From Escherichia phage PGN6866, in the sequence record MT127620: a stretch of DNA of 64,000 bases, one strand, 5' to 3'. The position numbers were made by a program, and so were the translations under genes. Under the pieces are notes generated by a model. The model had not been told where the DNA came from and ran no database searches. It saw only the letters and a program-made list of their open reading frames with translations. The number at the start of each line of letters is the position of its first letter. Positions within the stretch are counted from its first letter, which is position 1. Positions 31,150 to 43,417 of this stretch are shown in pieces.

Positions 31150-32994
31150 TTAGTGTGTGTGCATCCAGTTAAGTCCAATCTGACAATCAGATGCCAGAGG
31201 ACATTCCATGTTCAGATACTCGCCAGCTTTCTTAACACAAAGCTCAGTGTGCTCTTTGAGTTTCTGTACATCATTACGGTTTACTGAGAATTGACCTTCA
31301 TCGTGCATATCAATTACCTTAGCACAACGAACCTTATCTTTCTCAATCCACTTGTTAAGGAACATCATAGCATATTTCATAACAACAGCACCAGCACATT
31401 GCAGGAGTGTGTTAAGGGCTTTATGAACCATAACCTTACCAGTGGCATCCCGTCTCATTGTAATCTTACGACCATCAACTCCAATCAAGTATCCTTGAGC
31501 AGCTTTCTCTGTCATACGATCAATGAGGATTGCAATACATGGGTTCTCTGCTAAGAAACGTGCTCGCATCACTGAACCTTCGTCAGCCCCACCACCTACA
31601 ATTGAACCAAGCTTAGCGTCACCAGCACCATAGTTGAATGCGTAGATAAACGTCTTAGCGTTGTCACGAGTAGGAAGACCAGCAAGTTTCTGGTTGTGGG
31701 AGTGGATATCACCTTCAAGGAGAATATCACGATACATAATAGCAGAAGCTAAACCACGTTCTGCCAGAGCTTTCTTAGCTGGGTTGTTCTCTTCGATTGC
31801 CTCAGCAAGCATATCCCTACACTCTTTAATGAGGTAGTGAGCGAGCATACGAAGTTCAAGTCCAGAACCATCATACCCTAAGAATACTTCTTTACCAGCG
31901 GGTATGTAATATTTGTAAGCACCTACAGGTTTGTCTTTCTTCCCCGGCTTACCTTTCTCGTAAATTACGTTAGTACCTTTTCGTATATAACAACCATCAG
32001 GAACAACGTTAGTAATAACGAAAGGACGAGAGTGATCACTGTCTGAGTTATAGTCAGACTCAAACAAACTGCGACACTCGTGACCAAACAAACCACGGGA
32101 GGGAATATTAACCACGATACGATGTTTGAATCGAAAAGTTGGCGTAGCGCAGCTGTTAGCTTCTGCCGAAAGTTTACCATCTTCGCGTTCCTTTGCTATA
32201 AGTCCACTGATAAGACCCAGCCTGTGAGCCGCTACAACGCGTCTCTTAAGCAAACTTCCGACACTCCCTAGCTCACCCCCTAACCCTTCTTCAAGAGTCT
32301 CCTCGAGGTTTGTAGGAGCTGTAGGCCACTTGTTTGATGTGGCTAGTGCTTTCTTAATCTCATCAAACGTTACAGGATTACGTCGATTAGGGTTTAATCC
32401 CAAACCAAATACGTAAGCCTTCATATAGTTCTTAGTTTTAAACCTAAAATGCTTTTCTAAGAACTTCTTAATATCAGCGTCAACCATCTCGGCTGTCTGT
32501 TTTTGCTTAGCATTACCTCGCATCCAAGCAGTATACCATGCTTGGTATGTTCCATACTTTCTCATATCTTTCTTAATTTCGAAAGTATTCCAAGGCTTCT
32601 TAGATACGTTAAACTCTGGAGGAAGAAAGCCCTCATCCATAAGAGCTTCTTTAACTCGTGCATCTTTCGATGGGTCAAAGTCTACGTATTCGACACAGGT
32701 GAAAGCTCCACCAATATCTTCTCTCTTCAGCCCAACCCTATCACAATAGGCTTGAGGCCACTTCTGTAAAGCTCCAGACTTCTTAAACGGCTTCATATAA
32801 GTAGAGCCATCTAATCTCATCTTAGGTAAGAGAGGAATCAGTTCTTTGTCAATATTAACAATAATCTCTTTAAGGAGGTGAACATACCACCGAGCATTTC
32901 TTCGGTTGAAACTCACTCCGTGCTTTGCTTGCTTAGAGATTATATCAGCGACAGTCATCTCTGTCAAAAATGGAAGAGCGTCCGGGTTGCTCAC
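31150..32994 (-). CDS. DNA polymerase, family A (polymerase domain only)
   Basis: Motif A DGSGLELR, motif B K..N...YG, motif C VIDMHDE; no exonuclease motifs. Confidence 0.85.
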   Translation of the reverse strand: MSNPDALPFLTEMTVADIISKQAKHGVSFNRRNARWYVHLLKEIIVNIDKELIPLLPKMRLDGSTYMKPFKKSGALQKWPQAYCDRVGLKREDIGGAFTCVEYVDFDPSKDARVKEALMDEGFLPPEFNVSKKPWNTFEIKKDMRKYGTYQAWYTAWMRGNAKQKQTAEMVDADIKKFLEKHFRFKTKNYMKAYVFGLGLNPNRRNPVTFDEIKKALATSNKWPTAPTNLEETLEEGLGGELGSVGSLLKRRVVAAHRLGLISGLIAKEREDGKLSAEANSCATPTFRFKHRIVVNIPSRGLFGHECRSLFESDYNSDSDHSRPFVITNVVPDGCYIRKGTNVIYEKGKPGKKDKPVGAYKYYIPAGKEVFLGYDGSGLELRMLAHYLIKECRDMLAEAIEENNPAKKALAERGLASAIMYRDILLEGDIHSHNQKLAGLPTRDNAKTFIYAFNYGAGDAKLGSIVGGGADEGSVMRARFLAENPCIAILIDRMTEKAAQGYLIGVDGRKITMRRDATGKVMVHKALNTLLQCAGAVVMKYAMMFLNKWIEKDKVRCAKVIDMHDEGQFSVNRNDVQKLKEHTELCVKKAGEYLNMECPLASDCQIGLNWMHTH

Positions 32995-33010
32995 TTTATA
33001 CTCCTTTAAA

Positions 33011-33433
33011 TTATTGGTAAAGTAAATCTGTAAATGCTTGGTTATCTTCTACTACATTCAGCATGGTTGCTTCATCACTATAAGCCCTAACTGTCCCGTT
33101 GACAACTGTCCAAGGAGGGGGCGGAGGTGGTGTATGTGTAGCTCTGGCTTCACGAGGTTGTTCTCGTACCAGATGAGCCACAACCCTCTGATTAGCAACT
33201 TCTTCTCTTTCTCTAATAGCTCTCTGAATGTAGGCCAGCTTCATACCCCAAGCTTCTTCAAACTCTTGAGGGTGTTTATCACTGATAACCACATACTGAC
33301 GTTCAGGAATACCAGAGCGAATCTCTGATAATAATTCATGGAACAAATCTAGTTCATGTTCAGTGAGATTCATTTCGATATCATCCCACTTTAGAACTAA
33401 GAAACGGTTTTGGTGTCTAGCTGGTAATGGCAT
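33011..33433 (-). CDS. Hypothetical protein with poly-Pro stretch
   Basis: ORF upstream of polymerase. Confidence 0.55.
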   Translation of the reverse strand: MPLPARHQNRFLVLKWDDIEMNLTEHELDLFHELLSEIRSGIPERQYVVISDKHPQEFEEAWGMKLAYIQRAIREREEVANQRVVAHLVREQPREARATHTPPPPPPWTVVNGTVRAYSDEATMLNVVEDNQAFTDLLYQ

Positions 33434-33434
33434 C

Positions 33435-33593
33435 CTACTCCACCTCTACTTCAATGTAAGTTCTCTCGCCAACGTCGTCTTTTAAGACCCATGACTTGGC
33501 ATCTTCTTCAGACTTAAAAGCTTTCACAACGCTGTATCCCCCTTCCCATTCATCACCGAACCAGCGCTGTCCTACGTAAATGTATTCTTTCAT
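33435..33593 (-). CDS. Small hypothetical protein (52 aa)
   Basis: Hand-translated ORF. Confidence 0.35.
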   Translation of the reverse strand: MKEYIYVGQRWFGDEWEGGYSVVKAFKSEEDAKSWVLKDDVGERTYIEVEVE

Positions 33594-41478: not shown

Positions 41479-41487
41479 TCTTATTCC

Positions 41488-42858
41488 TTAGTTATTTGTT
41501 TCCATGTCAAAAGAGATTCCACGACCCGCTTCATCGGCAAACCGAACTGTACGGGTTTGAGGTTCTAATACTTCAGGGTTGTTAGCAATAAAGCGATCAG
41601 CGAGACTGCGGCTGTCAGCCGCAGCGAGTTCCTCATGAGAAGGAGTATCAAGATCGGAGAGACTGCCTACCACATCTTGGGCCACACCTTCATCAGTCCA
41701 CACAGCCCTAACAGGTGCGTTGATATCACCGACAGCAAAACCCTGACCAGAGAACTGACGTGCGCTAACAGTTAAACCATTTGGTCGACCACGAGAGGGT
41801 CTAGCCATCCATCGCTCCATAGAATCACTTGTAATACCGAGAGCTTCTTCAAAAGATGCTCTACGAGTAGGGCTTACTCTTCGTGACTCTTGTGCTCTAC
41901 GCATTGCAGGGGCTACAAACACCCCTTCAATTGCATTATGTCGGTTAGGTTCTTCTTCCCTTCCAAGCAAATCTCCACCCGTGTTGGTTGTTAAGTTTGT
42001 CAACCCTTCAGACCAATATGCATAAATCTGACCAGAGCCATGAACACTTGACATTAACTGAATTTCTTCGTAAGGGATTCCAAAGAATCGACTCATGTCT
42101 CGGTTAACACAATATTGAGCACTTGTTGTATCCTCAACAAGAGCAACCTGACCTCGTTCGTTGACCAGATGATTAATCGGTTGAGGTGTAGGAAGGTATC
42201 GAGTTTGTGCCATATATTGATATGCAACAGATGGAGCGGAGAATCTTAATACCTGTGAATTAGGCCACTTCTTGTGAACATACTTGATTTCACGACTAGA
42301 GACAACCACTGGACAAGGAGAGGTCATAGCCAAATATCCATGGGGGGTCATGAACAGCTTGTCAAGAGTCATCGCACCACGGCACATCATAGGAAAATTA
42401 TCCAATACCTCTTCAATAGAAGTAGGATAATTAAACATGAATTGGATACGAACCCCATTCCACTGAAACTCAATAATATCAGTGAATGTTAATTGAGAAC
42501 CCCCAGCATAGGATTCGTTTGTAGCTTCAGCAAGAAGTGATGAATACTCAATATCTTGCGACTCTAGCCATTCCTTCACATTACTTTCAATCTCTCTTCC
42601 AAGAGCTTGCCAACGGTCAGTTGATGTGAAAGTGTTTCTACCAGCAGGAAGCTGCCCTCTGACAATAAAGATATCAATGTCATGTGGTGCTATATTGTTA
42701 AGAACAGCATCACGAATAGCCCCACCAGTAATGATGGGATAGATACCGTCTGGAATCAAGTTGTTGTTAATCAACTGTTCAATGAAGTGACGACCAACAG
42801 TGATATCAGGTTGTTGAGCAACCTTATCTTCAATTTGGTTAATCGGGATAACAATCAT
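41488..42858 (-). CDS. Pol-beta-superfamily nucleotidyltransferase with CCA-adding-enzyme-like head and unrelated ~250-aa C-terminal region
   Basis: IITGGAIRDAVLNNIAPHDIDIF matches the GGAVRD...D.D motif; no HD motif found. Confidence 0.6.
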   Translation of the reverse strand: MIVIPINQIEDKVAQQPDITVGRHFIEQLINNNLIPDGIYPIITGGAIRDAVLNNIAPHDIDIFIVRGQLPAGRNTFTSTDRWQALGREIESNVKEWLESQDIEYSSLLAEATNESYAGGSQLTFTDIIEFQWNGVRIQFMFNYPTSIEEVLDNFPMMCRGAMTLDKLFMTPHGYLAMTSPCPVVVSSREIKYVHKKWPNSQVLRFSAPSVAYQYMAQTRYLPTPQPINHLVNERGQVALVEDTTSAQYCVNRDMSRFFGIPYEEIQLMSSVHGSGQIYAYWSEGLTNLTTNTGGDLLGREEEPNRHNAIEGVFVAPAMRRAQESRRVSPTRRASFEEALGITSDSMERWMARPSRGRPNGLTVSARQFSGQGFAVGDINAPVRAVWTDEGVAQDVVGSLSDLDTPSHEELAAADSRSLADRFIANNPEVLEPQTRTVRFADEAGRGISFDMETNN

Positions 42859-42859
42859 T

Positions 42860-43417
42860 TTACATTTTCCAATATAATGAAGGTGGGTCGTAAGGGTCAA
42901 ATCCCGTGAGTTCACACAAGAAAAGATAAACCTTAACAGTTAAGTTAACGTCCTGTTCACAATAAGTAAACATATCTTCAGTGAAAGCATCCCATGCTTC
43001 CTCTTGCTCACCATAATCGCCCTTAAGCTCTCCTAAGAACTCACCCCACTGCTTCAAACCATGACCTCTTGGGCCACGTCTAGGGTCGCCTTTCGGATAC
43101 TCAGGACTGTCACCAATACGGTCAGGTTTAAGATATCGACTAAGACATAAAGTGTCAAAGACGTTAAAATGATAGTTGATTAAAGAGGGATACATCTTCT
43201 TCAGAGCAGGTAAGTCGAAGTCAATAATATTATGACCCACTAGTACATCTGCTTCTGTAAGTTTACGAATCCCGTCTTCAATTTGGTGAGGCCGATAGCC
43301 CCACCTTTCACCAGTTTCAACATCAAAGATATAAATACACCATACTTTAGTTATGTCATCGTATAGTGCATTACTCTCGATATCGAATGCAAACACTTTC
43401 TTCTTTTTCTTTACCAC
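42860..43417 (-). CDS. DnaQ-like 3'-5' exonuclease
   Basis: Exo I FAFDIESN, Exo II HNIIDFD, Exo III YCEQD. Confidence 0.8.

Follow-up and report, generated by a model that had tools for sequence, protein, structure and literature searches.

Why would a phage carry the polymerase and the proofreading exonuclease of a family A DNA polymerase (PolA) in two separate genes, almost 10 kilobases (kb) apart? We examined this question in a 64,000-nucleotide stretch of DNA from Escherichia phage PGN6866 (sequence record MT127620), hereafter called the window. The region presents 92-96% nucleotide identity to the phages SU10, ES17, phiEco32 and Bas90/91 (94% for phiEco32) and, based on this identity, the window belongs to a Kuravirus (phiEco32-like) E. 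coli podophage genome, whose replication module it carries. All the genes concerned are carried by the minus strand, from about 24 kb onwards. The two genes in question are the following:

31150-32994, minus strand: predicted family A (T7 gp5-like) DNA polymerase subunit without exonuclease domain, 614 amino acids (aa); homologue of phiEco32 gp53
42860-43417, minus strand: predicted 3'-5' proofreading exonuclease of the DEDDy type, encoded as a stand-alone protein of 185 aa; homologue of gp74 of phiEco32, the "DNA polymerase exonuclease subunit"

Both open reading frames (ORFs) start with a GTG codon and they are separated by 9,865 base pairs (bp; positions 32995-42859). Four independent tests indicate that the two predicted proteins are the detached halves of a single T7-like PolA.

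The two subunits and their fused relatives

We first consider the polymerase. A single Pfam domain was found in this protein: DNA_pol_A (PF00476; residues 361-611; E = 2.5e-23; 83 bits for a cut-off of 34.3). The residues of motif A (G373, D375, L379, E380 and R382), motif B (R443, K447, Y451, Y455 and G456) and motif C (H564, D565 and E566) are invariant in 68 homologues. These results confirm the original prediction, made from the sequence alone, of a 614-aa polymerase in which motifs A, B and C are present and proofreading motifs are absent. The AlphaFold2 (AF2) model of the protein is of high confidence (predicted local distance difference test [pLDDT] of 92.0; predicted template modeling score [pTM] of 0.81) and presents the palm, fingers and thumb expected of a family A polymerase. 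When this model was searched with Foldseek, the top 27 matches were all T7 DNA polymerase (best E = 2e-26), followed by the Bst, Taq and Klenow enzymes. The protein is also 99.7% identical to the annotated "DNA polymerase" of Bas91. An Rfam scan of the window returned only a tRNA, and no intron or other interruption was found in the polymerase gene. The gene is complete and is neither a pseudogene nor a fragment.

The original prediction had raised the possibility of a cryptic exonuclease domain in the polymerase. We rejected this possibility on several grounds. Pfam at E ≤ 0.01 returned DNA_pol_A only and, when the profiles of the polymerase and exonuclease families were compared with each other, the sole match (32% probability) involved C-terminal tails. 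The AF2 model of the polymerase opens with long thumb helices and not with the beta-alpha-beta fold of an exonuclease. Finally, residue 12 of the polymerase aligns with residue 168 of the nearest fused relative that we found (P0119) and with approximately residue 210 of T7 gp5, that is, with the first residue past the exonuclease domain. The extra length of the polymerase is instead explained by three insertions relative to its fused relatives (residues 130-211, ~318-369 and 389-420).

The exonuclease matched the Pfam domain DNA_pol_A_exo1 (PF01612; E = 6e-9; 36.4 bits for a cut-off of 23.6). Among PHROG families, it matched phrog_403 and phrog_38876, which are families of "DNA polymerase exonuclease subunit", in addition to positions 667-826 of phrog_17. 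All three exonuclease motifs are present: Exo I (DxE), Exo II (Nx2-3[FY]D) and Exo III (Yx3D). Across 54 stand-alone homologues, no variation was observed at the catalytic residues D12 and E14 of Exo I, N63 and D68 of Exo II and D156 of Exo III, and the tyrosine of Exo III (Y152) is at least 90% conserved. The AF2 model (pLDDT of 93.9) presents an RNase H-like fold and was most similar to the exonuclease domain of T7 gp5, which accounted for all of the top 27 matches in the PDB (Foldseek; E of 3e-11 to 5e-9). The next matches—the exonuclease domain of a family B polymerase and other DEDD nucleases—were found at E = 1e-5 or worse.

The original prediction had described a stand-alone DnaQ-like exonuclease with motifs Exo I-III located ~10 kb from the polymerase. 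The ORF, its motifs and its distance were all confirmed, but the type of the enzyme must be revised. Motif Exo III reads Y152-x3-D156 and no Hx4D is present, and neither Pfam nor a sequence search of the PDB gave any DnaQ/epsilon match. We therefore rejected an identity with DnaQ/Pol III epsilon (DEDDh). Judging from its sequence, the protein is a DEDDy enzyme of the PolA type and is DnaQ-like at the superfamily level only. This also bears on the suggestion that the exonuclease might be unrelated to the proofreading domains of PolA: its best match is the exonuclease domain of T7 gp5. The gene ought to be annotated as a proofreading subunit.

We then compared the two ORFs with intact PolA enzymes, and they were found to correspond to contiguous domains, as the original prediction had anticipated. 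In the comparison with T7 gp5, the exonuclease matched over residues 3-178 (phmmer E = 2.4e-13) and the polymerase matched colinearly over residues 295-363, 410-482, 470-490 and 496-704. The profile of phrog_17 ("DNA polymerase"; 1445 positions) is matched by the exonuclease at positions 667-826 and by the polymerase at positions 836-1233, two segments that are adjacent and do not overlap. The same arrangement was observed with P0119, a fused enzyme of 618 aa whose precomputed Pfam hits include PF00476 and faint matches to PF01612 and PF13482, and whose gene is found on a contig of 45 kb, downstream of the one for a primase/helicase. Residues 11-169 of the exonuclease match residues 5-154 of P0119; in the polymerase, residues 12-129 match residues 168-285 and residues 212-614 match residues 269-618. 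When the exonuclease and polymerase sequences were joined and aligned using MAFFT with P0119, a second fused enzyme (P0117) and T7 gp5, the sequences aligned end to end. The junction falls in the linker between the last helix of the exonuclease and the first helix of the thumb, at approximately T7 residues 195-205. Taken together, the two proteins follow an intact PolA colinearly, without any missing or duplicated part.

T7 gp5 represents the best solved match for both halves. The motif B tyrosine of the window polymerase occupies the position of T7 Y526 and, in both phages, a gp4-like primase/helicase is encoded upstream. T7 gp5 is, however, one chain of 704 aa, whereas the window encodes two chains of 185 and 614 aa. 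We considered whether a split intein, trans-splicing or rejoining at the RNA level could restore a single chain. These were rejected, as neither the C-terminus of the exonuclease nor the N-terminus of the polymerase carries any additional sequence. The Rfam scan of the window gave no intron RNA at the break.

Distribution and origin of the split

The separation of the two genes is an already known feature of these phages that has been annotated since 2008, and our finding is a correct rediscovery. The GenBank record of phiEco32 (2008) states that gp53 "lacks 5'-3' and 3'-5' exonuclease domains" and that gp74 "contains 3'-5' exonuclease domain". Every LUZ24-group phage was later reported to have separate polymerase and 3'-exonuclease genes, as described for phiEco32 (Glukhov 2012; PMC3517423). 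A 2023 review noted that the polymerase is separate from the 5'-3' and 3'-5' exonuclease subunits in all the phages of the Kuravirus group, as well as in 7-11, Privateer, Vp_R1 and BUCT695 (PMC9965538). In phiEco32 (Kuravirus, Gordonclarkvirinae), the same genes are found at the same positions and the exonuclease is 99.5% identical to that of the window. The distance between the two genes varies across the phages that we compared:

Window (Kuravirus): gap of 9.9 kb
Bas91 (Kuravirus-like): gap of 8.1 kb; polymerase 99.7% identical to that of the window
phiEco32 (Kuravirus): gap of 8.0 kb
Proteus phage Privateer: gap of 5.6 kb; polymerase 47% identical to that of the window
Aeromonas phage LAh_6: gap of 9.6 kb; exonuclease 43% identical to that of the window
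Pseudomonas phage PSA40 (Bruynoghevirus): gap of 1.9 kb; polymerase 39% identical to that of the window

The order primase/helicase, exonuclease, intervening genes, polymerase was found in Kuravirus, Bruynoghevirus, Privateervirus and Lahexavirus. The adjacency of the primase/helicase and exonuclease genes is kept in all the split lineages that we examined (in LAh_6, a single small ORF separates them). In all the phages listed above, the polymerase starts at the same place: 8-12 residues before the conserved helix (V/I)ADIIS.QAK.GV.F. The phages of the LUZ24/PaP3/tf group (Bruynoghevirus), whose genes are named "DNA polymerase part I" and "part II", share both this start and the order after the primase/helicase gene, and their polymerase is 39% identical to that of the window over 99% of its length. 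They differ in the size of the gap, which contains 7 small ORFs in PSA40, and in the polymerase itself (545 aa), which presents a shorter thumb insertion and is devoid of the 32-aa insertion after motif A.

The two proteins also share their distribution. The exonuclease and the polymerase co-occur in every lineage examined, and they match nearly identical sets of phage genomes (polymerase with at least 80% identity in 98 records; exonuclease with at least 60% identity in 97). Among the listed homologues of the polymerase, precomputed Pfam hits show no exonuclease domain in the first 116, and a fused enzyme first appears at rank 117 (43% identity). The nearest outgroups of the split clade are fused: P0117, P0119 and the polymerases of T7-like phages, pelagiphages and cyanophages. 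In addition, every polymerase of the split clade carries an insertion of 45-82 aa in the thumb (residues 130-211 of the window polymerase; nucleotides ~32362-32607, minus strand). This insertion is basic in the window (18 K+R for 7 D+E) and mostly helical, and it is absent from P0119, P0117 and T7 gp5.

These results are best explained by a two-gene replicase of the T7 type that was formed by one ancient fission, a reading to which we assign a probability of roughly 85%. The ancestral exonuclease-polymerase gene would have been broken once, anciently, in the linker between its two domains. The gap would then have been filled with nucleotide-metabolism genes and small accessory genes, and the HNH endonuclease genes that it contains today would be recent, strain-specific arrivals. 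Both halves are intact, confidently folded and conserved in their catalytic residues, and the exonuclease would dock non-covalently on the polymerase and proofread in trans. This would be similar to epsilon with alpha in E. coli Pol III, where polymerase and 3'-5' exonuclease are also found on separate polypeptides. The likeness is an analogy only: Pol III is an unrelated family C polymerase and epsilon is a DEDDh enzyme, whereas the exonuclease of the window is predicted to be DEDDy with the PolA fold. The fused state is that of bacterial Pol I and of most PolA enzymes of phages, and the thumb insertion is found in the split clade only, which is why we favor fission over fusion. The simplest account is a single fission, after which the gap grew, but two points weigh against our reading: its polarity is deduced from these comparisons and not from a rooted tree, and the two proteins were modeled as single chains, their physical association being presumed. 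Our search of the literature for biochemical work on these split subunits found none and returned only unrelated cases (jumbo/chimallivirus phages and an OM43 phage whose polymerase is split within the polymerase domain).

Two more genes of the window are relevant to the alternatives:

43411-45201, minus strand: T7 gp4-like primase/helicase; Pfam DnaB_C and weak Toprim_2, with supporting annotations in Bas91, phiEco32, PSA40, Privateer and LAh_6
24182-25000, minus strand: separately encoded 5'-3' exonuclease, 272 aa; weak Pfam match to 5_3_exonuc_N (9.5e-6, below cut-off), with Bas91_0026 ("exonuclease") at the same relative position

As the main alternative, it is conceivable that the exonuclease is no longer a partner of the polymerase and acts as an independent nuclease in host DNA degradation, recombination or primer processing, which would leave the polymerase without proofreading. 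The location of the gene is compatible with this scenario: it is situated 10 kb from the polymerase gene, and it is coupled to the primase/helicase gene, whose stop overlaps the exonuclease start by 7 nucleotides. However, the constant co-occurrence of the two proteins argues against their independence, as do the full PolA proofreading active site that the exonuclease has kept and its structural similarity, which is close for T7 gp5 only (E = 3e-11, relative to 1e-5 or worse for other DEDD nucleases). Moreover, a separate 5'-3' exonuclease exists for other nuclease tasks. We consider this scenario improbable.

Alternatively, the polarity could be reversed: separate exonuclease and polymerase genes would be ancestral, and the T7-like and bacterial PolA enzymes would result from fusion. 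Stand-alone families of "DNA polymerase exonuclease subunit" are indeed common enough in phages to have PHROGs of their own. Nevertheless, the split clade forms a tight sequence cluster with a fixed breakpoint and its own thumb insertion, and both its nearest outgroups and bacterial Pol I are fused. The order primase/helicase, exonuclease, polymerase also mirrors the order of gene 4 and gene 5 in T7. Reverse polarity thus appears very unlikely.

The thumb insertion could be what allows the polymerase of the split clade to work without a covalently attached exonuclease, either as a docking platform for the exonuclease in trans or as a substitute clamp for DNA or thioredoxin. This is a speculative suggestion that we consider rather unlikely. 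If true, the exonuclease/polymerase junction would represent a long-lived insertion hotspot, at which different lineages would have accumulated 2-10 kb of cargo genes for nucleotide metabolism.

Contents of the gap and the HNH genes

The gap (32995-42859, minus strand; 9.9 kb) contains about 25 genes. Based on Pfam and PHROG matches, these encode a nucleotidyltransferase, a dCTP deaminase, a Dps-like protein, a thioredoxin, ThyX, a ligase-like protein, PhoH and HNH endonucleases, in addition to small ORFs. The features that we analyzed are:

33435-33593: 52-aa ORF, in a window-only segment
34207-34500: 97-aa Cys/His-rich ORF, in a window-only segment; phrog_9585, function unknown
34825-35154, minus strand: free-standing HNH endonuclease gene, 109 aa; phrog_2255 (1e-26) and Pfam HNH (3.6e-4)
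35243-35692, minus strand: possible degenerate HNH_3 endonuclease gene, 149 aa; Pfam HNH_3 (4.2e-5, sub-threshold) and no PHROG match
38372-38851, minus strand: free-standing HNH_3 endonuclease gene, 159 aa; phrog_99 (4.6e-55) and Pfam HNH_3 (above cut-off)
38841-39116, minus strand: phage thioredoxin, 91 aa; phrog_22, conserved in phiEco32, Bas91 and Privateer

The original prediction counted two HNH genes in the intervening DNA. Two are indeed robust (those matching phrog_2255 and phrog_99), and the ORF at 35243-35692 adds a third, marginal candidate. We compared the window with Bas91 using BLASTN and found that the HNH ORFs lie in segments present in the window only (34827-35703 and 38400-38856), with conserved flanks on both sides, as expected of precise indels. 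The gene at 38372-38851 is inserted between those for thioredoxin and ThyX, with an overlap at either end; in Bas91, these two genes are spaced by 15 nucleotides with no HNH gene between them. The other insertion is also intergenic (PhoH/phrog_4590), and both are far from either end of the break. Near-identical DNA was found in just 8 (34825-35154 gene) and 6 (38372-38851 gene) of the 121 related records, and the full 877-bp segment with the ORF at 35243-35692 was found only in phage ES17. The 8.1-kb gap of Bas91 contains no HNH gene, although this phage is equally split. Likewise, no HNH gene is annotated in the gaps of Privateer and LAh_6, and the seven gap ORFs of PSA40 gave no HNH match in Pfam. 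From their sequence and distribution, the HNH genes are ordinary free-standing insertions of the homing endonuclease type, sporadic and acquired long after the split.

The original prediction viewed the HNH genes as consistent with an intact polymerase gene that was disrupted or shuffled by homing endonucleases and, even though the gap holds two to three such genes and mobile elements target the polymerase gene elsewhere (a group I intron near motif B in two contigs, L006 and L007, and an intron in LUZ24; PMC3517423), we rejected them as the cause of the split, an origin that is most improbable given their rarity among relatives, their distance from the break, the split phages whose gaps are free of them and a split older than the divergence of lineages with 39-47% identical polymerases. 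An ancient mobile element may conceivably have given rise to the fission, but nothing here points to one.

Two additional window-only segments were found relative to Bas91 (34203-34512 and 33448-33590), which contain the 97-aa and 52-aa ORFs. The HNH genes are thus not the only source of variation in the gap. The difference from phiEco32 (8.0 kb) is of the same nature: the 9.9-kb gap of the window has three additional ORFs of the HNH type, along with two small inserts of other content.

The gene that starts at the stop codon of the exonuclease encodes a "nucleotidyltransferase" of 456 aa (41488-42858, minus strand) that matches phrog_12715 over its full length (8.6e-261) and has no Pfam match. 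Its N-terminal part contains a GGAIRD...DIDIF motif, which resembles the head domains of CCA-adding enzymes or poly(A) polymerases, and its C-terminal ~150 aa look of low complexity. No counterpart was found after the exonuclease gene in Privateer, LAh_6 and PSA40.

The processivity factor of T7 gp5 is the thioredoxin of the host. The polymerase of the window is devoid of ~22 residues of the T7 thioredoxin-binding region (MAFFT alignment), and the phage encodes its own thioredoxin. A role of the phage thioredoxin as a T7-style processivity factor was proposed by the authors of the Privateer study (PMC7881722). By analogy with T7, we hypothesize that the thioredoxin of the window is a candidate processivity partner of the polymerase.

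Related observations and implications

Several observations concern the genes of the replication module more broadly. The C-terminus of the primase/helicase (43411-43500, minus strand) forms an acidic tail whose last residue is aromatic. It resembles that of T7 gp4, which is also acidic, ends in Phe and makes contact with T7 DNA polymerase. With the 5'-3' exonuclease encoded at 24182-25000, the three activities of Pol I are all carried by separate genes in this phage, as noted for the group (PMC9965538). The only tRNA of the window is a tRNA-Arg (anticodon TCT; 60001-60076, minus strand), for which ARAGORN and Rfam (72 bits) agree.

In two relatives of the window, on contigs of 77 kb and 25 kb (L006 and L007), the polymerase gene contains an ORF-less group I intron near motif B (L006 positions 5354-5617; Rfam RF00028; 102 bits), which cuts it into ORFs of 454 aa and 139 aa. 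Other polymerase fragments of ~450 aa (P0015-17, P0082-85 and P0101 of Aeromonas phage BUCT695) suggest the same interruption in further relatives.

We also identified a perfect sigma-70 consensus within the first 60 nucleotides of the polymerase ORF and in the same orientation (32939-32967, minus strand; codons 10-19). It consists of TTGACA, a 17-nucleotide spacer and TATAAT (12/12 matches), with an extended -10 TG. We roughly estimate that fewer than 0.01 such matches would be expected by chance in the 15.5 kb that were scanned. Bas91 and phiEco32 carry exactly this sequence, and the -35 element is degraded to TTAACG in L006. The -10 element overlaps the conserved ADII codons and the consensus may partly be a by-product of coding constraints. 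A transcript initiated from this sequence would be devoid of the start codon of the polymerase.

Our results indicate that the split itself offers little new biology and that the HNH genes represent mobile elements of an incidental nature. Only two leads are mildly new: the basic thumb insertion that is specific to the split clade, and the block of cargo at the former domain junction, which varies in size. These phages nonetheless constitute a convenient system for asking whether, and how, a detached proofreading domain of PolA works in trans.

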